Assembly (NCBI GenBank): GCA_018268415.1
Contig: JAFDWO010000136.1
Coordinates: 494-64,493 of the forward strand
Direction: 5' to 3'
Origin: Actinomycetota bacterium
GTDB lineage: Bacteria; Actinomycetota; Thermoleophilia; Solirubrobacterales; 70-9
DNA: 64,000 nucleotides
Position 1 is the first letter of the stretch. Each line of letters opens with the position of its first letter. Positions 51,150-60,633 of this stretch are shown here, piece after piece. The notes beneath the pieces are model-generated. The model was not told where the DNA came from and did no database searches. It saw nothing but the letters and a program-made list of their open reading frames with translations. The translations under genes were made by a program, and so were the position numbers.

Positions 51150-51245
51150 GCGCCCGTAGCTCAGTGGTCAACGGGTCCCTCCGGGGGCCCAAAGAGCGTC
51201 GGTCTTTCAAGCCGAAGGTCGCCAGTTCGAATCTGGTCGGGCGCA
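51150..51245 (+). tRNA. tRNA-like gene, anticodon UUC by position, with an 18-nt hairpin insertion in the D-loop (96 nt, no encoded CCA)
   Basis: Manual cloverleaf. Acceptor GCGCCCG/CGGGCGC (7 Watson-Crick pairs), TA, D-stem GCTC/GAGC. Anticodon stem TCGGT/GCCGA, loop CTTTCAA, variable loop AGGTC. T-arm GCCAG-TTCGAAT-CTGGT, discriminator A. The D-loop is 31 nt and contains hairpin GGGTCCC-TCCG-GGGGCCC (51173..51190). Confidence 0.65.
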
Positions 51246-51606
51246 TTCCTAGCAGTTCCGGGCAGTGCCGGTGAGGGCCGGTGCAAAGCCAAGTTGTCGG
51301 TTGCGGGTCGGAGATGCGTTCCGGAGGCTTCCTCTCGATTCCGGGGCATTCCGGGAGGTCTGTGTCGCATCCGTGTCTCATTTCGAGGTGCGAGCGATCA
51401 GCTACTCGTGCTTCTCGGCGAGCTTCGCTAGCTCACTCACCGCGCCATCGTCCTGGGCCTGCTGCTCCCGCCATCACCGAATTCATTTCATCTCGCTGCA
51501 TCGACCATCGGCTCCACCCAGGACCGCGTCTATCCGAGCCGAAGGGGCCGAAGTGGGCTCCCCCAGAGGCGCCTCCATCGAAATCGGTCGGCGATACCAT
51601 TGCCAT

Positions 51607-51852
51607 GTGACCACGAAGGAGCGCCTACACAAGCTGGTCGATGATCTGTCGGACCAGGAGGCCGAGGCCGCGTTGGTGATCGTCGAGCGTCGGCGGGACG
51701 ATCCGATGCTGCACGCGCTTGCGGCTGCTCCGCTCGATGACGAACCTTCCGACCCCGACGAGGACGCTAGTGCCGCTGAGGCGCTTGCTGCGTATCGCCG
51801 AGGCGAAGGCGTGTCTTCCGGCGACTTGCGGTCTGAGCTCGATCTCAATTGA
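51607..51852 (+). CDS. putative antitoxin (acidic C-terminus, family not recognised)
   Basis: GTG 51607 within ORF 51265..51852. 81 aa (TTKERLHKLVDDLSDQEAEAALVIVERRRDDP...). Its stop overlaps the toxin start (TTGA). Confidence 0.55.
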   Translation: MTTKERLHKLVDDLSDQEAEAALVIVERRRDDPMLHALAAAPLDDEPSDPDEDASAAEALAAYRRGEGVSSGDLRSELDLN

Positions 51853-52109
51853 CGCCAGGCTGGTCCCTTCGGTTCATGCCCCCGGCGCGGCGTGATTTGA
51901 AGCGACTCGACCGACCGGTTCAGCGGCGCATTCTCGATGCGCTCGATCGGTTCGTCGCCGCTCCACGCAGTGGCGACATTCGGAAGCTCGATTCGGTCCA
52001 GTGGCGGCTGCGGGTAGGCGACTGGCGTGTGCGCTTCAGCTTTGACGACGAGAATCAGGTCATCATCGTGCTGCGCGTCTTGCCTCGCGGGCGCGCATAC
52101 GATCGCTGA
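51849..52109 (+). CDS. RelE/ParE-family type II toxin
   Basis: 86 aa. WRLRVGDWRVRFSFDDENQVIIVLRVLPRGRAY matches the RelE/StbE core pattern (yR.RvGdyRv.y......v.vl.v.hR...Y). Confidence 0.8.
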   Translation: MTPGWSLRFMPPARRDLKRLDRPVQRRILDALDRFVAAPRSGDIRKLDSVQWRLRVGDWRVRFSFDDENQVIIVLRVLPRGRAYDR

Positions 52110-52218
52110 AGCATCATTGGCCGGTGCCTCATGACGGCTGGACCGCCGCCGCGAATCCGCCCGGCAGTCAACGCCTCGGCTTTCAAGCGTCCGGAAGACG
52201 TGAGCTGAGCTGCGCGGC

Positions 52219-53127
52219 TCAGCCGTAGTAGTAGGACAGCGAAGGAGGGCGCTTAAGCGGATTCCGACTCAACGGAGGCGGTATGCGATTCCAGCCGTCT
52301 TCGGCTGAATATCCCACTCGTGCAGCATCGGCGCTTGCGCTCGTTTGGAAAGGAGCGCCGTTCTTGTCGGACACGGTTAAGGAATGTCGTTGCCCATCCA
52401 GAAGATAGGAGAACTTCAAGCGCCACCGCACGTAATGCCGAGTCGTGTGCGCGATCACCAGGAAATGCTCTACTTCTTCGTCCTTGAGCGAGAACTGAAA
52501 CGGTGCCCGTTCAGAGTGATAGCGCCTTCGCGGTTCGAGGAATTCAATGTATGGCCTGGGCGCATCGAGGTCGATCGACAGCAATCGGGTAGGGAGCCTC
52601 GCGGCTTGGAATGGGCAATACGCTCGGACACCTCTAATAGGCGGCTCCCGCGTTACCACCTCAACTTGGGCGCGATTCAGGATCAGTGGGCCGGGCGCGG
52701 TAGACCCCACGTACAGCGAGACATACGTCGATTCCGCGTCGATGCCCCCTTCGCTCTTTGCCCAGGCTCGCCAGCTCTCGCAGCCCGGATCTTCCAGATT
52801 GACGGACGGCGGGATCCGCGCCATTTCTTCTACTGATCTGGCAAAGATGTAGCTATCTGCCGAACTGACCGAGGGTATGCCGGTTGACGAGCTAGCTTGG
52901 ACTTCTAGCGCCGTCGGGCCTCCGCTACGAACTTGACCGATCGTCACGCTCAGGGGATCCGGTTGGACACGCGTGAGCTGATCGAAGGTATCGCTACTCT
53001 TGCTGCCAATTACGCCCCCGACGCTCGCGGTGACAGCAAACAAGACGAGAGCGCCCAAAATCGTGCGGAGACCCCTGCGTCGCGCGGGCGTCCGTTGTGC
53101 CGAGCTCCATTCCCCCCGCTGAGGCAC
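52219..53127 (-). CDS. hypothetical membrane-anchored protein
   Basis: 302 aa. Arg-rich N-terminus, then one TM helix (ILGALVLFAVTASVGGVIG). No recognisable motif in the remainder. Lower GC. Confidence 0.5.
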   Translation of the reverse strand: MPQRGEWSSAQRTPARRRGLRTILGALVLFAVTASVGGVIGSKSSDTFDQLTRVQPDPLSVTIGQVRSGGPTALEVQASSSTGIPSVSSADSYIFARSVEEMARIPPSVNLEDPGCESWRAWAKSEGGIDAESTYVSLYVGSTAPGPLILNRAQVEVVTREPPIRGVRAYCPFQAARLPTRLLSIDLDAPRPYIEFLEPRRRYHSERAPFQFSLKDEEVEHFLVIAHTTRHYVRWRLKFSYLLDGQRHSLTVSDKNGAPFQTSASADAARVGYSAEDGWNRIPPPLSRNPLKRPPSLSYYYG

Positions 53128-53240
53128 AGCGCGCAGGGTACCGCGTCCATAAGGTCTCGGTACGTCTTAGGTTGTTCGATCCGGCACGCCAGCCGTCGCT
53201 AAGGCCCCACCGCTCTGAGGCTGAGGGATCCCGGGGTCCA

Positions 53241-53311
53241 GGCCTCACCTCGGTCACATCGCCGCCGCGATCCCACCCCTCAAGCCAGCGCCCTTCGTCC
53301 TTTCAATCCGA
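53241..53311. repeat. about 70-nt segment paralogous to 57071..57142, ending in a partial tRNA anticodon-arm copy (CCTTCGTCCTTTCAATCCGA)
   Basis: GGCCTCACCTCGGTCACATCGCCGCCGCGATCC aligns with TGGTCTCATTTCGGTCACATCGGCGCCGTGACC. 53292..53311 matches 57123..57142 with 1 mismatch. Confidence 0.6.
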
Positions 53312-53345
53312 TGGAGATTGGCTTTGATGCCTGCGGGCGTCCCGG

Positions 53346-54590
53346 TTATGTCCAGAGAGCGCTGATCGGAACCGCCCAGAGTCGATCGCCGAGCGGGACG
53401 GTCTGGGCGCCGGCATGAATCAGGAACCCGGCGCGGAAGTCCTCGCTGCGAGCATCCCGGATCTTCGCCATCGGCCTCCAGTCTCGTTCCCGGACCGTCG
53501 CCGCCGCCTTGACCTCAAGACAGGCGATCGCTCCTGAGCGATCCTCGAGGACGAGGTCGATCTCGTCGTTGCCGGTTCGGTAGTGGAAGAGACTTGCGTC
53601 GGTGCTCGCCCATTCGAGGTGCTTCATCACCTCCATCGCGACGAAGTTCTCGAGCGCCATTCCGGTGACTCGCTCGTCCTCGCCGAGGCGTTTCGGGTCG
53701 GCTCCGAGCAAATGGGCAAGGAGGCCGCTGTCGACGATGTAGACCTTGCGCGTCGTCGACTCACGAGCTCCGATCGACGGCCTCCAGGCGGGGAGGGTCT
53801 TGACCAGGAAGACGGTCTCCAAGAGGGTCGTGTAGCTGCGGACGGTCTTGTGCTCCAGCTGCAGTCGCTTACCCACCTCCGAGGAGTTCAGGAGGCTCGC
53901 GGCGCGACCCGCCAGCAGCTTCAGCAGCCGCGGCATCTCGCGCAATTTCTGCGCATCGCTGATGTCGCGCAGGTCGCGGTCGAGCGTCGTCTTCAGATAG
54001 TTCTCGAACCAGTTGGCCCGGCGTGAGCCGTTGCGCTTCAGCGCCTCGGGGTATCCACCGGCCGCGATTCGATCGACGAAGGCCCCGCGGCCGACCGGGG
54101 CATCGCGGATCTGAGGCGGAGCCGCGGAGAAGAGGGAGTCGACGATATTGCCGGCCGATCCCTCGATCTCGCTCTGGGACAGCGGCCACAGGGTGATGAT
54201 CTCGATCCGTCCGGTGAGCGCGTCCTGGACTTTGCGGTTGGTGAGGACGTTGGCCGAGCCCGTCAGCAGAAACTGGCCCGGCGTCTGGTCGGCGTCGACG
54301 GCCCCCTTGATCGCGAGCAGCAGATCGGGGCCGGCTCGCTGGACCTCGTCGAGCAGGACCGGGCGCGAGACGCCGGCCACGAATCCCTCGGGGTCGCTGC
54401 TCGCCGCATCTCTCGCTGCTCGGTTGTCAAGGCTGAGCACGTCAGCGAGATGCTCGGTCGCCGCGATCTCTTCCGTCAAGGTGCTCTTGCCCACCTGCCT
54501 GGCGCCCATCACGTAGACGACGCGGGTATCGGCCAGTGCTTCCAGGATCGGCTTGCGACTGTGGCGGGCGAAGTTGGCCGACATCGCCAT
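53346..54590 (-). CDS. AAA-type ATPase with a DUF4143-like C-terminal domain
   Basis: 414 aa. Walker A GARQVGKST, Walker B VLLDEVQ, C-terminal domain typical of the AAA_14/DUF4143 architecture. Confidence 0.75.
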   Translation of the reverse strand: MAMSANFARHSRKPILEALADTRVVYVMGARQVGKSTLTEEIAATEHLADVLSLDNRAARDAASSDPEGFVAGVSRPVLLDEVQRAGPDLLLAIKGAVDADQTPGQFLLTGSANVLTNRKVQDALTGRIEIITLWPLSQSEIEGSAGNIVDSLFSAAPPQIRDAPVGRGAFVDRIAAGGYPEALKRNGSRRANWFENYLKTTLDRDLRDISDAQKLREMPRLLKLLAGRAASLLNSSEVGKRLQLEHKTVRSYTTLLETVFLVKTLPAWRPSIGARESTTRKVYIVDSGLLAHLLGADPKRLGEDERVTGMALENFVAMEVMKHLEWASTDASLFHYRTGNDEIDLVLEDRSGAIACLEVKAAATVRERDWRPMAKIRDARSEDFRAGFLIHAGAQTVPLGDRLWAVPISALWT

Positions 54591-54601
54591 GAGCGTAGTG
54601 C

Positions 54602-54681
54602 AAATTGGGAAAGTCAGCTATGCAATTTGGGAGGTCACTCTAGGGAATATGGGAAGTCGGCAGGAGATAAATGGGAAGGAA
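54602..54681. repeat. four direct iterons (wAAwTGGGArGTC) with exact 22-bp phasing
   Basis: TGGGA starts at 54606, 54628, 54650 and 54672. The units are AAATTGGGAAAGTC, CAATTTGGGAGGTC, GAATATGGGAAGTC and TAAATGGGAAGGAA. They begin 16 nt upstream of the AAA ATPase start codon. Confidence 0.85.
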
Positions 54682-55045
54682 GAGGATGGCAAGCTCGCGC
54701 TCGGAAGGCGAAAGTCGCCGAGACGCCTCCGTAGGGATAGATATGGATCTAGGGACGGGCGTGGATTGCAGCGCGGCGGCTCAGCGCTTCGGCCTCCTCG
54801 CACGTCGGCCTCACCCTAATGCGCCTTCGCGGCTCGACCGAGCATGCGAGGTGCCCCCGGCTCCTGATGCCTAGGAGTCGATGGCGCCCTCCACCGCCAT
54901 CCGCGAGTTGTGTTCCAAGCTCCGCGGGGAAGGTGGGTGTTGGAGTGGGTCTCCGAGCGAATAGTCCAGGAGGAGACCGGCCGGGCGGCTAGGGCGGGCG
55001 CCACCTCGAGGTCGCCGCCATCTTCGATCCCTTTCCCCCGCAAGT

Positions 55046-56815
55046 TTGAGCGAAACCGAGACCACCTCTAACAAGCCCGCGATCTTCGAGCGCCGGGTCA
55101 AAAAGAGCTCCCGCCAACTTGGCGACGCATACCGGAAGCCGTCCGGTCAAACGGATACCAATAAAAAGATGCAGCCGACCATCGCTGGGCTAATCGACGC
55201 GGTGCGCGAAGGGGACTTGGCTCTTCCCGAGTTTCAACGGGACTATCGGTGGCCAGCTCAGTACATTGAGGAACTTCTTCGCTCTGTGGCACGGGGGTGG
55301 CCGATCGGCACTCTTCTACTGCTCGATCAGTCTGCAAGCGCCAAAGGTCTGAAGCTCGAGGCGCGCTCGATCGAAAAGGCGCCGAACTGCAAGAAGCGTC
55401 CGGAAAACCTGATCCTCGACGGCCAGCAGCGGGTGACCGCGCTCTATCACGCGATGAATGGCCTCGGCGACTCCGTCTACTACCTCAACCTCGCCAATGT
55501 CCTGAATGCCGGGGAATTCCTAGACGACGCACTTGGCTCGGCGACCGGCAAGCAGCTTACGCGGACGCTGGGTTCGGAGGACGAACGTCGCAGAAACAAG
55601 ATCATCCTCCTGAAGGAGCTCTACTCGACGGAGCTCTTTGCGCACTGGCTGGGATTCATTCCGAAAAAAGAACGCAACGCGTATGCGGCGCTGCGCGACG
55701 AGCACTTGTCCCTCTTCCGAGAGCACACGGTTGCGATTGAGCGCCTGCCCAACAGTCTGCCCGTAGAGGCGATCGCAAAGATTTTCGAGAGGACCAACAG
55801 AGGCTTTCTCCGCCTCGACGCTTTTGACCTCATGGTCGCGATCATGTATCCCCACGGCTTCAAACTTAGGGACAAATGGAGCGGGGCCGTAACTGCGAAC
55901 CCGATCCTCAAACGCTTCGAGGTCGCGCCTATCGAGATTCTTCGGCTGATCGCGCTTCGTGAGCATCTCCGACAGAAAGAGCGTCGAGTATCGCCGCAAA
56001 CTGTCAAAGGAGTACGACAGAGTGACGTATTAGAAGTCAAACCCGCCACCGTAAAAAAGGAGTGGACCTCGGCCGTTGCGGCGTATGTGCGAGCCCTCAC
56101 GTTGGCTGAGTCACACTGGGGTGTGATCCGGAAGAGGATCGTCCCCGCCGAGGCTCAGTTGCTGCCGTTAGCTGACGCGCTGTACGGCGGCAACGTCCGC
56201 AACGGATCTTCGAAGCACAAAAAGCTCGGCCGGTGGTTCTGGGCCGCAATCTTCTCCAGGCAATATGCGCGCGCGGCGAATACGCGTGCGGTTTCGGACG
56301 CAGAGGCCCTGAGGGCGTGGCTCAAACCGAGCGGACCCGAACCTCGCTACGTCGAGAATTTCAAGGTGTCAACCGAGGACTTTGTCCTCGTCGAGGAGGG
56401 AAACGAGATCCTGGTCAAGGGGCTCTGCTGCTTGCTGGTCAGCGATGGTGCTCGTAGCTGGACCAAGGCAGCGGGTGGAGGGCTGCCGTCGCTCCTAACC
56501 GAAACTGAAGCCGAGTTGGCGGTCCACCACATCTTCCCGAAGAAATTCATGGCACGCAAATCCAAAGGCACCCTGCGTCTGTTGCCTGATGTCGATGCGC
56601 CTGCAAATCAGGTCCTCATCACCGCAAGTCTGAACGGGAAACTGCTGAACGAGGCTCCGGAGTACTCCGCCAAAAATCCCGAGGTCGACATAGGCGGTCT
56701 CAAAAGCCATCGTGTCGACCCAGCCCGGATGAAGGGAAGTCAGTACAAGGCATTCGTGAACGCCCGGGCCGCAGAACTTGTCCCTCTCGTGGACCGGGCC
56801 GTCAAGGGTTATTAA
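55046..56815 (+). CDS. DUF262-domain protein with a C-terminal His-Me-finger (DUF1524-like) nuclease motif, GmrSD-like
   Basis: 589 aa from TTG 55046; a more conventional start is ATG 55169. LPEFQRDYRW and LILDGQQRVTAL (DGQQR) motifs. C-terminal HHIFPKKF ... NQVLITASLNGKLLN. Confidence 0.8.
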   Translation: MSETETTSNKPAIFERRVKKSSRQLGDAYRKPSGQTDTNKKMQPTIAGLIDAVREGDLALPEFQRDYRWPAQYIEELLRSVARGWPIGTLLLLDQSASAKGLKLEARSIEKAPNCKKRPENLILDGQQRVTALYHAMNGLGDSVYYLNLANVLNAGEFLDDALGSATGKQLTRTLGSEDERRRNKIILLKELYSTELFAHWLGFIPKKERNAYAALRDEHLSLFREHTVAIERLPNSLPVEAIAKIFERTNRGFLRLDAFDLMVAIMYPHGFKLRDKWSGAVTANPILKRFEVAPIEILRLIALREHLRQKERRVSPQTVKGVRQSDVLEVKPATVKKEWTSAVAAYVRALTLAESHWGVIRKRIVPAEAQLLPLADALYGGNVRNGSSKHKKLGRWFWAAIFSRQYARAANTRAVSDAEALRAWLKPSGPEPRYVENFKVSTEDFVLVEEGNEILVKGLCCLLVSDGARSWTKAAGGGLPSLLTETEAELAVHHIFPKKFMARKSKGTLRLLPDVDAPANQVLITASLNGKLLNEAPEYSAKNPEVDIGGLKSHRVDPARMKGSQYKAFVNARAAELVPLVDRAVKGY

Positions 56816-57070
56816 CCCACTCGCGGACTGCGTGCCAGGGCCGACGGCTCATACGGTCGAATCCGGCGGCCTCAAGATCACTCGCCTCCGGCCAGGCGCT
56901 TGGAAGGCGCCCGGGACCTCGCTCAAGGAACGACTCGCCTCAACTCCGACCTGAACGCAATCGGCACGCTCGTCGACCTTGGCATCCTCGCGCCCGCCGG
57001 ACGAACGCGACCCTCCAGCAATGCCTGCGTTTACATGGCGCCCGAGGTTGTTGAGATTGCCTCGTCCTAG

Positions 57071-57170
57071 TGGTCTCATTTCGGTCACATCGGCGCCGTG
57101 ACCTCGCTTGCCATGCGGGCCACCTTCGTCCTTTCAAGCCGAAAATCGCCAGTTCGAATCTGTAGGGCAT
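57071..57170. repeat. degenerate copy of the tRNA-like gene 3' portion (att-like direct repeat) preceded by the 53241-type segment
   Basis: 57131..57162 CTTTCAAGCCGAAAATCGCCAGTTCGAATCTG versus tRNA 51204..51235 CTTTCAAGCCGAAGGTCGCCAGTTCGAATCTG. The T-stem and acceptor 3' strands are broken (CTGTAGGGCAT). Confidence 0.8.
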
Positions 57171-57329
57171 CCTCCTTGTTCCGCTCGCCGTTCGCGACCC
57201 TCGGCGCCCGCCGGGAGGCCTATCCGCGCCCACTGTCCCAACAGATTCCGGCGGGCGACGGTGGGGAGCAGGCCGAGTGCGGCCAATTGTTCACCGAGGC
57301 CGGCAGGAGCCGGCCTTCTCCTCTTCACC

Positions 57330-57366
57330 CGATGTCTGTCATCTCGAAGCGAGATGACAGACATCG
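57330..57366. repeat. perfect inverted repeat CGATGTCTGTCATCTCG-aag-CGAGATGACAGACATCG
   Basis: 17-bp arms with a 3-nt loop. About 50 nt downstream of the minus-strand small ORF, so it may act as a terminator or a protein-binding site. Confidence 0.8.
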
Positions 57367-57417
57367 CGAGGACAACCGCAAAACAGTCCGCACGGGGCCG
57401 GCTCGATGCTCGGCGGC

Positions 57418-57609
57418 TCAGGGCTCGGTTCGCGACCGGTGACGCCGTCGCCTGATGTAGAGGACCAGACCGGCGATGAGCGCCGCTCCCCAGAGGACGG
57501 AAGCCCAGATCCCGACCCGTTGGGCGATGAACCCCGCGATGCCGGTCGCCAAGAGGAAGGCGATATAGGCAGCAAGGAGGAGGAGGGCTCGACCGGCCAG
57601 CCTGCGCAC
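57418..57609 (-). CDS. possible small two-helix membrane protein
   Basis: 63 aa with two hydrophobic stretches and an Arg-rich tail. No homology was recognised, so coding status is uncertain. Confidence 0.3.
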   Translation of the reverse strand: MRRLAGRALLLLAAYIAFLLATGIAGFIAQRVGIWASVLWGAALIAGLVLYIRRRRHRSRTEP

Positions 57610-57822
57610 GGGGGAAAGTCTATTTGGCGACCGGCGCTGTTCTAAACCATGTGATGGGAAGTTTTGGATCCAAGATCAGGACAAATAGATCCGAAATTAG
57701 GATTTTGAATGCACCTGATCTATGGTTGGCGCCAGGGTTAGACGGACTGGTGACCGCCAGGAGCTTGGGTAGCTCCTCTGGTTCGCCGGACCTACGCGGC
57801 TACGAGAAGAGGAGAGTTGGTC

Positions 57823-59445
57823 ATGGATCGCTACCGGGCAGCGTCGTATGGAAAATCCCTTGCCGTCCTTGTGGCGGTGTTGGCCGTCATTGCTCTTCCC
57901 GTCGGTAGCGCGTCGGCCGCCACCACCACCACGATGACTCTCGACGAAGCGCATGAAGCTCTGGCTTCGGGCCGCGTGACCTCGGTCCAACTGACCCGCG
58001 CGTTTCTGGCGCGCATCGACAAGTACGAGCCCTTCTACAACGCGTTCACGGCGATGAACCGGAAGGCACTCGCCGAAGCTCGGGCGTCCGATGCGCGGCG
58101 TGCGATGGGCCAGGCGCGGAGCTACGTGGACGGTGTGCCGATCGTGATCAAGGACTCCATCGACGTTGCCGGGCTACCCACCACGGGCGGCTGGCTCTCC
58201 GCCCAGGCGGGGGGTATCAACCTGGTCCCCGACCACGACGCGCCTGCGGTCGCCCGTCTGCACCGCGGCGGGGCGATCATCCTCGGGAAGACCAACCTGC
58301 CCGCCTTCTCGTTCGCCTACAACGCGAACGACAGCTGGGCGGGGCCGACCTTCAACGTCCTGAATCGGCACTGGCTCCCCGGCGGGTCCTCGACCGGCAC
58401 CGCGACCGCGGTCGCGGCCGATTTCGCCACGGCGGGGCTCGGTGAGGAAACCGCCGGCTCGATCCAGGTGCCCGCCGGAGCGCAGAGCCTGGTGGGCATC
58501 AAGCCCACCTTCGGCCTCGTGCCCAACACCGGTGCCCAGCCGCTTGGTGGACCGACGCGTGACGTGCTGGGGCCGATCACGAAGACGGTCTCTGATGCGG
58601 CCGAGATCTTGAACGTGATCTCCGGTTACACGCTGAAGGATCCGAAGACGGTTGCCTCGGTCGGGAACATTCCGGCGGGCGGTTACAAAAGCGACCTCTC
58701 CACGACTGCGCTCGCGGGGACGAGAATCGGCCTCTACGGCCCGGGCTGGAAAAAGCACGGTCGCCTCAATCCCGCCACGACGGCCCTCTACGACAAGGCG
58801 ATCAAGGTCTTGGAAGGACAAGGGGCCACGCCGGTCGCCGATCCATTTGCGGGCAGCGGTTTCGCGTCCCTGGCGACGGCAGGTCTCATCGGTCTGAAGT
58901 CGATGCCGTACGACTTCAACAACTACCTCAAGAACCTTGGTCCGGGCGCCCGGGTCCACTCGCTGAAGGAACTCGACAAGGCTCTCGGTGTCAACATCTT
59001 CGACCCCGGGGGGCCTGCCCACCTGTTCGAGGAACTGTACCCCGAAATGATCCCTTCGGTGAAGCATCCGGCCGTCCCACCGGACATCTCCAGCTTCGTC
59101 AATGCGCGTGAAAAGTACCTACGCATCTTCGATCGGGTCATGGACAAAAATCACCTCGACGCCCTGATGTTTCCGCAAACCACCCAGGCGCTGGGAAAGC
59201 TGTGGGGAGAATCGATCGATCTGACGACGGTCTCCGCGGTGAACGTCGCCGGGCTACCGTTGGTGGTCATCCCGGCCGGGCGCTATCCGAGCGGAAAGCC
59301 GTTTGCCCTCGTCTTCGTCGGCAGGCTCTGGAGCGAGGCCCAACTGATCGGTTATGCCTACGACTACGAACAGGCGGCCCCAGGCCGCATCGTCCGCAAG
59401 CACCTCGCGACCACCCCGGGTCCGAGGCACCCCAAGAAGAAGTAG
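57823..59445 (+). CDS. secreted amidase (amidase-signature family)
   Basis: ATG 57823 follows a GAGGAGAG RBS. Signal peptide ...[20 protein letters not shown] and [12 protein letters not shown] (GGSS) signature. Confidence 0.85.
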
Positions 59446-59481
59446 CGGTCAGGCTACCCACCATCGGCGGGATCCTGAATA

Positions 59482-59506
59482 ATCGGCCCCTGTGGAGGGG
59501 GCCGAT
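59482..59506 (+). terminator. hairpin ATCGGCCCC-tgtggag-GGGGCCGAT after the amidase gene
   Basis: 9-bp stem, 37 nt after the stop. Confidence 0.5.
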
Positions 59507-60455
59507 CCGAGTCGAGCATGGTCGTTCTTGGTCGTCAACGAGGGCGACCGCCAGCACCAGGGAAATCAGGGTTACGACGATGAGCCCAGCCGGTACTACA
59601 GCTGGGACTCGACCGTGCCCAACCGAGACGGACCGCAGGAGGGAGATCTTTGCGCGGTTCGGGACTCGCGAGGCCTGCTGGGTATCTCGCAGATAGACGA
59701 GATTACGCGTAGCGAGGGGGAAGAAAAGACCCGATTGCGTTGTCGGGAGTGCGAAAGCACTGCACTCAAGAGTCGGGCGACGGTGCGGCCGACCTATAGG
59801 TGCAGTAGTTGCAAAGCCGCGTTCGACGAGCCGATCGAACAGCCGATCGAGGTGACCGTCTACCGGGCGGACTACGGACGGAGCTGGGTCTCGGTAGGGG
59901 GAGCGGTGACGGCCGGGGAGCTGGAGGCCGATTGTTATCTATCGGGGGCGAAACAGCACGCAATCCGCCCTGTGGACCCGCAGGCGCTCAGGCAACTGGC
60001 CGCTACCCGGCAGATCCTGATTGCCGGCGAGTGGTGGAGGACCGGCGGTGCCGTCGAAGCCTTGGAGATCCCGGGCGGCCATCGTCGACTCACGGCCCTT
60101 GCGCGAGTCGGGCAGGGAGAGTTCCGTCGGCGCCTGCTCGAGCGGTTCGGTCCCGTTTGCGCGTTCACCGGGCCCCAGCCGGGAAAAGAGCCTGCATGCG
60201 GCCCACGTGATCGATTACGCAAGAGATCCACGACACGAACTCGCCGGGGGGCTTCTGCTCAGGGCAGATCTTCACGCACTGTTTGATGCCCGGCTGATAG
60301 CCGTTGATCGAGACTTGAAGATCCGGGTCGATCCGTCCCTGCGATCCTTTCGTGAACTTTCTCGGCTTGATGGTTCGCCATTACGGATCAACTCTGCCGA
60401 CCCTCTGCTGTCGACGCTTCGGGCGCTGCTCGAGAAGCGGGACAACGGGGCCTGA
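59492..60455 (+). pseudogene. frameshifted HNH (HNH_2-type) endonuclease with an N-terminal reader-like domain and a zinc ribbon
   Basis: ORF 59492..60286 ends in out-of-frame sequence after ...FRRRLLERFGPVCAFTGPQP. The +1 frame (ORF 60021..60455) continues with SLHAAHVIDYA...GLLLRADLHALFD, the HNH_2 core. The shift must lie in 60170..60192 (runs CCCC, GGG, AAAA). CRECES...CSSCK zinc ribbon. Confidence 0.7.
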
Positions 60456-60633
60456 GTCGTTCCACGCCCTAAGAAGCTGTCTCAAAACCCCCGCGCACGC
60501 CTGGACGGCGCCGGACACACTTCGCGGGGCGGCGTCCTCAGTCGGCCAAATGGCCTGCCATTCGACCTCCTTGCGTCCTACCCCCGCTCGGTCCGGCACT
60601 CGCCGGTCGCACACGCGGGTTTTGGGACAGCTC

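Follow-up and report, generated by a model that had tools for sequence, protein, structure and literature searches.

An integrase-less island at an unusual tRNA(UUC) gene of an uncultured Solirubrobacterales bacterium, very probably the decayed remnant of stacked elements

In the metagenome-assembled genome (MAG) of an uncultured member of the Solirubrobacterales, a genomic island was analysed that reaches from a complete tRNA gene at 51150 to a partial copy of this gene ending at 57162. All coordinates refer to the window, i.e. the whole stretch of 64,000 nucleotides that was analysed, which corresponds to positions 494-64493 of the 72-kb contig C40; the assembly comprises 4.74 Mb in 160 contigs, has a guanine-plus-cytosine (GC) content of 70.4% and is 94% complete. 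The island is very probably the decayed remnant of at least two small tyrosine-integrase elements, which were stacked at a single-copy tRNA gene with the anticodon UUC and whose integrase was lost. This reading is carried by a direct repeat of the tRNA 3' half, by element arms at both ends of the island, by the remnant of a gene that lies between the tRNA and the integrase gene in the closest relative, and by related genomes (designated G001 and so on, G001 being the closest relative) with intact, truncated or missing integrase genes at the same tRNA.

Results and discussion

Direct repeat and element arms

The 32 nucleotides that lead from the anticodon loop into the T-arm of the tRNA recur on the same strand at the far end of the island with 30 of 32 identical positions (Table 1), the two mismatches being exchanges of GG for AA at 57144-57145. 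The window was shuffled 100 times with its dinucleotide composition preserved; with up to 3 mismatches allowed, no shuffle (0/100) contained two such repeat-like matches. A hidden Markov model (HMM) trained only on the attR sites of relatives matched positions 57071-57167 with an E value of 2.7e-22.

The sequences adjoining both repeat copies are also found in related genomes. From 51246 to about 51440, the DNA behind the tRNA (156-190 nt) is 73-90% identical to the DNA at the same place in at least 12 relatives, and the approximately 60 nt preceding the downstream repeat copies are homologous across genomes and to positions 57072-57130 of the window. Both element arms are therefore recognisable, P' beside the tRNA and P in front of the right repeat copy. 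Each of them contains two GTCNCAT motifs 11 bp apart (51364/51375 in the P' arm and 57073/57084 in the P arm), and in seven relatives this pair is likewise present behind the tRNA, at +119/+130. Within the window the 11-mer GTCTCATTTCG has exactly two occurrences, one in the P' arm and the other in the P arm (motif regions 51364-51384 and 57073-57093). These motif pairs are candidate arm-type sites of the integrase.

It might be argued that the copy at 57.1 kb matches by chance or belongs to a separate tRNA paralogue that has degenerated, and has nothing to do with integration, as it is imperfect and has no clean 3' end. The probability of this explanation is negligible, because the copy was not reproduced by the shuffles, no tRNA was detected there with Rfam (E ≤ 1), and it is preceded by 60 nt with homology to the arm before attR in eight relatives. 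The preliminary description of this DNA had read the repeat with its 2 mismatches as the trace of a site-specific integration at the 3' end of the tRNA, which is supported by the homology of attR and arms to the relatives. A gene order shared with relatives, which it named as evidence to the contrary, was not found, the 3'-half copies lying 2.8-19 kb downstream in nine genomes with different cargo.

The composition of the island also deviates from that of the genome. The GC content of 51246-57130 is 62.4%, and the 6-kb windows of the genome, which served as baseline, have a mean of 70.3% with a standard deviation of 2.2%; only 0.45% of them are equally low. Genes located at 51.6-60.5 kb have a GC content at third codon positions (GC3) of 0.65-0.85, in comparison to 0.91-0.94 for the upstream LacI gene and, past 60.6 kb, for the genes of the methyltransferase and LuxR. 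Both measures bear out the lower GC that had first been noticed in sampled lines of the sequence.

Loss of the integrase

Domain searches with PF00589 (Phage_integrase) and PF00239 (Resolvase) over the whole 72-kb contig yielded no match to tyrosine or serine recombinases at E ≤ 1. When the window was searched by tblastn with the integrases, Xis and XRE proteins of G001 and G011, only noise was obtained (best E values 0.25-0.7), with the exception of an XRE remnant. Small open reading frames near both ends of the island matched no Pfam family. Elsewhere in the assembly no integrase of this family was detected either, the best matches being XerC/D-type genes with 25% identity.

The XRE remnant consists of the last 13 codons and the stop codon of a helix-turn-helix (HTH) gene. 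All 13 residues (13/13) are identical to the C-terminus of a 110-aa XRE protein of G001 (tblastn, E 6.5e-4), and the remnant also matches G011. In G001 the intact XRE gene is located between the tRNA and int, and the remnant occupies the corresponding place in the window. The homology of the window to every relative stops at 51434-51444, and the relatives can be aligned with each other beyond this point, so that the left edge of a deletion is defined. This deletion, with its left edge at about 51444, has most probably eliminated xis and int along with the missing part of the XRE gene. The profile and tblastn searches agree with the preliminary description, which had found no recombinase gene or remnant between the repeats. 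Its account of the 360 bp next to the tRNA was right in so far as an integrase is absent from them; they are not simply non-coding, as it had stated, and comprise the conserved arm of 156 nt and the 13-codon remnant.

Modules and cargo genes

Inside the island, a further site (53241-53311, termed junction B) has the structure of an old attR and matches the HMM of the relatives' sites with an E value of 2.4e-19. Junction B is shared with G001, where an internal site is 87.5% identical over 80 nt, including the decayed part. The arm adjoining the tRNA is 89.8% identical between G001 and the window. This similar divergence indicates that junction B is older than the split of the two lineages. With its arm, core and decayed tRNA part, junction B marks at least two stacked modules, an inner one (51246-53311) with a toxin-antitoxin (TA) pair and a membrane-anchored protein of 302 aa, and an outer one (53312-57162) with the genes of an AAA-DUF4143 ATPase and a GmrSD-like protein.

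The genes of the TA pair are found in the islands of five relatives with about 78% nucleotide identity. The antitoxin candidate shows 77-84% amino acid identity to the partner gene in these islands; the ParE toxin is present in full length in four of them (85-90% amino acid identity), and the fifth copy, in G008, is split. The gene for the AAA-DUF4143 ATPase is 93% (amino acids) and 92% (nucleotides) identical to a gene of G008 that adjoins attR there, whereas the arms of G008 and of the window are only about 75% identical. This difference points to an exchange of cargo between islands of the family. The accessory genes had been named previously from their translations, and those assigned to a family were recovered by Pfam (ParE, AAA_14 with DUF4143, GmrSD_N, the amidase and a fragment of an HNH_2 gene). 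The positions of all features are listed in Table 1.

Table 1. Features of the island and of the adjoining tract in window coordinates.
Feature	Position	Strand	Evidence and remarks
Target tRNA (attB, regenerated at attL)	51150..51245	+	Rfam tRNA, 64.5 bits; UUC anticodon; Arg(ACG)-type body
Left direct repeat copy	51204..51235	+	CTTTCAAGCCGAAGGTCGCCAGTTCGAATCTG; begins at C32, first base of the anticodon loop, ends in the T-arm
Element arm beside the tRNA (P' arm), non-coding	51246..51401	+	156 nt; 73-90% identical to at least 12 relatives
XRE/HTH gene remnant	51402..51443	-	last 13 codons (51405-51443) and stop (51402-51404)
Antitoxin candidate	51607..51852	+	81 aa, no family match; overlaps the ParE start
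ParE/RelE-type toxin	51849..52109	+	PF05016, 5e-12; phrog_1213
Possible third junction, strongly decayed	52126..52190	+	70% similar to 53242-53278; contains CTTTCAAGC
302-aa protein, N-terminal membrane anchor	52219..53127	-	no family match
Internal junction B, putative old attR of the inner module	53241..53311	+	element arm, CTTTCAA core and decayed tRNA 3' half
AAA_14-DUF4143 ATPase, candidate defence protein	53346..54590	-	Pfam; PADLOC PDC-S01, 4e-153
GmrSD-like (DUF262) protein	55046..56815	+	PF03235, 8e-22; PADLOC PDC-M55C/HEC-05, N-terminal part only
Element arm before the right repeat (P arm)	57072..57130	+	aligns with eight attR sites of relatives; HMM; motif
Right direct repeat copy (attR core)	57131..57162	+	next ~13 nt a degenerate acceptor-stem part
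Further low-GC tract, no detectable att end	57163..60633	.	GC 64.5%, GC3 0.70-0.82; probably an older module
Amidase	57817-59445		Pfam
Frameshifted HNH_2 gene	59492-60455		Pfam, fragment

An origin of the region from a prophage, or as a cassette array of the integron type, was also considered. Two viral contigs of IMG/VR (41-50 kb) carry an integrase with about 50% identity at their ends, and the modules of the island are small and separated by similar sites of about 75 nt. Nevertheless, such an origin is very unlikely. With PHROGs, no phage structural, packaging or replication genes were identified in the island, only the RelE-like toxin and families of unknown function; an IntI-type integrase and attC-like hairpin sites are missing; and the seams consist of an arm plus a tRNA fragment, all in direct orientation. 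Moreover, the complete members of the family in relatives are units of 6-8 kb with xis, int and cargo.

The element family in related genomes

The tRNA gene of 96 nt, including its insertion, is found with 91-100% identity in another 21 genomes of the genus, and nine of these have a second, partial copy on the same contig and strand, each with different cargo in between. In seven of the nine genomes (G001, G004, G008, G009, G011, G013 and G016) the 3'-half copy begins at query position 55, within the anticodon loop; its start is somewhat earlier in G017 and G019 (query positions 40 and 48, respectively). The distance of the copy downstream of the tRNA varies considerably (G017 2.8 kb; G019 4 kb; G011 6 kb; G008 8 kb and, for a further copy, 19 kb; G004 10.5 kb; G013 11.6 kb; G009 17 kb; G001 18.4 kb; G016 18.8 kb). 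The repeat of G001 is perfect, measures 47 nt and extends to 5 nt past the end of the tRNA.

The state of the integrase was scored in 18 relatives. Integrase DNA is of full length in ten of them, truncated in four (G009, G010, G013 and G019) and absent from the remaining four (G003, G012, G015 and G017), a mixture which shows that the integrase has been lost recurrently. The intact integrases of the ten genomes lie 1.6-2.1 kb from the tRNA, and the catalytic domain was located 2.2-3.7 kb behind the tRNA in G001, G004, G005, G006, G007, G011, G016 and G024. Complete small members of the family are found in G008 and G011 (6-8 kb); they consist of the tRNA, the arm, XRE genes, a gene for an Xis-like HTH protein, int, cargo and attR. 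Their cargo comprises a Dam-type methylase, a TA pair and an AAA-DUF4143 protein, and a MazF-like TA system also occurs in islands of the relatives.

The integrase of G001 (362 aa) has 192 relatives in public genomes with amino acid identities of 79-100%, all from uncultured Solirubrobacterales-type MAGs of soil; the genomes found via the integrase are MAGs of uncultured Solirubrobacterales or Thermoleophilia, mostly from soil. In 80 loci that were fetched, the distance between integrase and tRNA was measured. At 48-49 of the 80 loci the UUC tRNA is followed by the start of the integrase gene at a distance of 0.9-3.3 kb (median about 1.8 kb), and an integrase of the same family (at least 79% amino acid identity) lies 1.6-3.2 kb downstream of a tRNA-Arg(ACG) at 15 of the 80 (among others L042, L043, L059, L070, L071 and L078). 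One integrase family thus targets both an Arg tRNA and its Glu-decoding look-alike.

Two further islands that are built in this way were observed in the genome under study. On contig C1 (9999-25393), a tRNA-Glu(CUC) has a 3'-half copy at a distance of 15 kb and an integrase at C1:10784; on contig C146 (2141-11402), the corresponding distance is 9 kb for a tRNA-Arg(ACG), with the integrase at C146:5230.

Proposed origin of the island

Each incoming circular element would have carried between its two arms the 3' half of the tRNA, which begins in the anticodon loop and includes 5 nt beyond the end of the gene. By a crossover that presumably occurs in the anticodon loop, the integration of such a circle would regenerate the tRNA at 51150-51245, and the previous 3' half would thereby be pushed downstream. 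With successive integrations, the newest element would come to lie nearest to the tRNA. The younger module (51246-53311) would then have lost its XRE-xis-int block, beginning at about 51444, and kept the ParE TA pair and the membrane protein of unknown function; the older module (53312-57162) would contain the two defence-type genes for the AAA-DUF4143 ATPase and the GmrSD-like protein. Since an integrase of the family was not detected in the assembly, the island most probably cannot excise alone and would stay in place until a related element comes in. For such a newcomer, which could stack on the island or co-excise with it, the regenerated tRNA should still be a perfect target.

Several points weigh against this reconstruction. 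The right repeat copy is imperfect, with its 2 mismatches, and its acceptor-stem part is degenerate. An empty site was not found, the site being occupied in 18 of the 18 relatives examined; as the flanks are non-syntenic, no pair of states before and after integration could be built, and integration is deduced from the structure. No shared downstream backbone follows attR when the flanks of seven relatives are compared by tblastx with each other and with the window, so that synteny gave no outer boundary on the right of the attR copy. A circular form was not found in IMG/VR, from which a 24-mer specific for the attP junction is absent. The possible third junction at 52126-52190 yielded an E value of 1.9 with the relatives' HMM, which is not significant, and it was downgraded accordingly. 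Finally, as the assembly is 94% complete, the cognate integrase may be located on a piece that was not assembled.

This last point leads to the question of whether the island is still a working element that is mobilisable in cis or trans, i.e. a true cis-mobilisable element (CIME) or a satellite, and is moved by an integrase of the family from elsewhere. At 57131 as well as in the tRNA, the core CTTTCAA is preserved along with the half-sites on its two sides, the paired GTCNCAT motifs are kept in both arms, distant genomes share cargo such as the AAA gene with 92% identity, and the TA pair would fit selection for retention. Against this, the assembly offers no better candidate than the XerC/D-like genes mentioned above, and the 3' end of attR is degenerate. 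Present mobility is thus rather unlikely.

A more far-reaching version regards the integrase-less modules as the units of a tRNA-anchored cassette system, in other words as an array of defence genes that is always occupied and stands behind the one, structurally unique tRNA-Glu(UUC) of the genus. A lambda-type integrase of the family, acting in trans, would stack and reshuffle modules of 1-4 kb, each with its own arm-plus-core site, or exchange them between genomes. Both the array and this mode of action are doubtful, and the decay of stacked elements is retained as the explanation of the island.

Flanking regions

To the right of the attR copy, DNA of low GC content continues to 60633. It is about equally probable, or not, that the 6 kb bounded by the repeats are only the inner part of a larger acquired region from 51.2 to approximately 60.6 kb, with the copy at 57.1 kb as an internal seam and the outer att site lost. 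The low GC and GC3 values of this tract (Table 1), in comparison to a GC3 of 0.91 beyond it, speak for such an extension, as does a homologue of the HNH_2 gene, which is located 4 kb behind the same tRNA, within the island, in G012. In G008, furthermore, attR is followed by arm-like sequence, which indicates that stacking occurs in relatives. On the other hand, no att-like sequence was detected with the HMM between 57.2 and 64 kb, and the amidase could be an unrelated acquisition. On the basis of composition and the G012 homologue, the tract 57163-60633 is regarded as a probable older module that has lost its end, with chances that are about balanced. A larger region is compatible with the proposed decay of stacked elements and does not exclude it. 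That acquired DNA possibly extends to about 60.6 kb had already been suggested from the sequence, and GC, GC3 and the HNH_2 homologue agree with it.

The HNH_2 gene and its counterpart in G012 (L014, 7099-8059) share 63-70% identical amino acids. The G012 copy encodes its N-terminal part in a different frame from the middle and HNH parts, which share one frame, so that the breaks in the two copies apparently do not coincide. The methyltransferase gene downstream of the tract (60.6 kb) was found among the relatives only in G012, on another contig and with no shared neighbours, and an exact-protein look-up in public assemblies returned nothing on record. Just to the right of the attR copy, at 57330-57366, lies a perfect inverted repeat of 17 bp with a spacer of 3 nt (CGATGTCTGTCATCTCG AAG CGAGATGACAGACATCG), which may be a terminator or a protein-binding site.

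On the other side, the upstream flank of G001 and G012 corresponds to C40:11.9-15.8 kb, so that a gene block placed 1.8 kb upstream of the tRNA in these genomes is about 35 kb away from it here. The intervening approximately 35 kb (about 15400-51100 of the window) contain genes for a sugar ABC transporter, RpiR, LacI, a HisD-like protein, SDR and cupin proteins and have native-like GC3 values. They represent either a large genome-specific insertion or DNA that was lost in the relatives.

The target tRNA

The target tRNA is identical to those of G001 and G012. In its D-loop it carries an insertion of 25 nt, which forms a hairpin of 6 bp with UNCG-type loops. ARAGORN reported it as 'tRNA-???', and among the loci it was miscalled Pro(ggg) or Ala(agc) or again given as '???'. 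The anticodon loop reads CUUUCAA, with the anticodon UUC. Within the genome its body most resembles tRNA-Arg(ACG), with which it shares 59 of 71 positions; the two have the same variable loop, D-stem and acceptor stem, and a single base distinguishes their anticodon stems. An origin of the tRNA as a chimera, caused by integration into tRNA-Arg(ACG), was considered and rejected, since both halves are equally Arg-like and the two tRNAs disagree at 3 of the 7 anticodon-loop positions.

The 79 loci yielded 12 sequence variants of the tRNA, and none of these breaks any of the 27 base pairs of the five-helix structure. Three of the six pairs of the D-loop hairpin covary with changes on both sides, one of them taking five pair types. 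In the complete genome G010, 46 tRNAs were typed, and only the target tRNA has a UUC anticodon. Each genome of the genus possesses one canonical Glu-type tRNA (CUC); a canonical tRNA-Glu(UUC) is missing from the genus and occurs in two other families of the order; one GluRS-type synthetase is encoded per genome. GAA accounts for 19.5% of the Glu codons. At 210 aligned positions, GAA was replaced by GAG or GAA in 78%, and the side spectrum of its replacements is that of GAG and not that of Arg codons, so GAA is used synonymously with GAG. These data suggest that the five-armed tRNA is the essential GAA decoder of the genus and carries Glu. Its role as the sole GAA decoder might be an explanation for the strong conservation of the integration site. 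Literature searches on a tRNA with a D-loop hairpin in this group returned nothing pertinent.

Comparison with known systems

The Williams 2002 classification of tRNA integration sites reportedly includes an anticodon-loop class. The island shares with this class the identity from the 7-nt anticodon loop to the 3' end, and the anticodon stem would provide symmetric half-sites around the crossover. It differs in that the target is a five-armed tRNA and in that the position of the crossover is a deduced one here.

In the scheme of tRNA-integrated islands as used by Islander (PMC4383910), a tyrosine integrase, a regenerated tRNA and a displaced 3' fragment that marks the far end belong together. 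The island agrees with the Islander islands (PMC4383910) in its intact tRNA, in the displaced and directly oriented 3' fragment, in its deviant composition and in its variable content among relatives, whereas the tyrosine integrase is missing from the copy in the window and present in 10 of 18 relatives. Island finders that rely on an integrase would consequently miss it.

The island can be classed as a CIME-like decayed island. attL and attR are kept (tRNA plus P' arm, 51150-51401; P arm plus core, 57072-57162), the genes for integration and transfer are lost according to Pfam, PHROGs and tblastn, and the derivation from a complete element by decay is indicated by the XRE remnant in its place and by the break in homology at about 51444. 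Like the CIMEs related to ICESt1 of Streptococcus thermophilus (PMC5704250), it would have arisen by deletion and lies in tandem with a decayed module at the 3' end of the target gene. It differs from them in its host, an uncultured member of the Solirubrobacterales, and in the parental elements, which are xis-int-cargo units of 6-19 kb without recognisable conjugation genes; Pfam and PHROGs likewise revealed no conjugation families among the cargo of the island. In addition, attR is partly degenerate, and a mobilisation of the island in cis is putative (PMC5704250 for the comparison).

With defence islands and integration hotspots (PMC10201445) it shares its cargo, i.e. a TA pair, the PDC-S01 ATPase and a GmrSD-like nuclease. 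The defence role is a predicted one in the present case, and the similarity to GmrSD is confined to the N-terminal domain.

Conclusions

In principle the island is ordinary, as the decay of att-flanked islands that lack an integrase is textbook knowledge; only the target tRNA is unusual. The analysis documents a previously undescribed, genus-wide integration hotspot together with its integrase family in uncultured Solirubrobacterales of soil, and all stages of island decay can be seen side by side in this genus. It provides a concrete example of an island that integrase-based finders overlook, and it flags the PDC-S01 ATPase and the GmrSD-like protein as candidate defence cargo. The island itself is of little weight; the more important point is the target tRNA, which appears to serve the genus as its essential GAA decoder.

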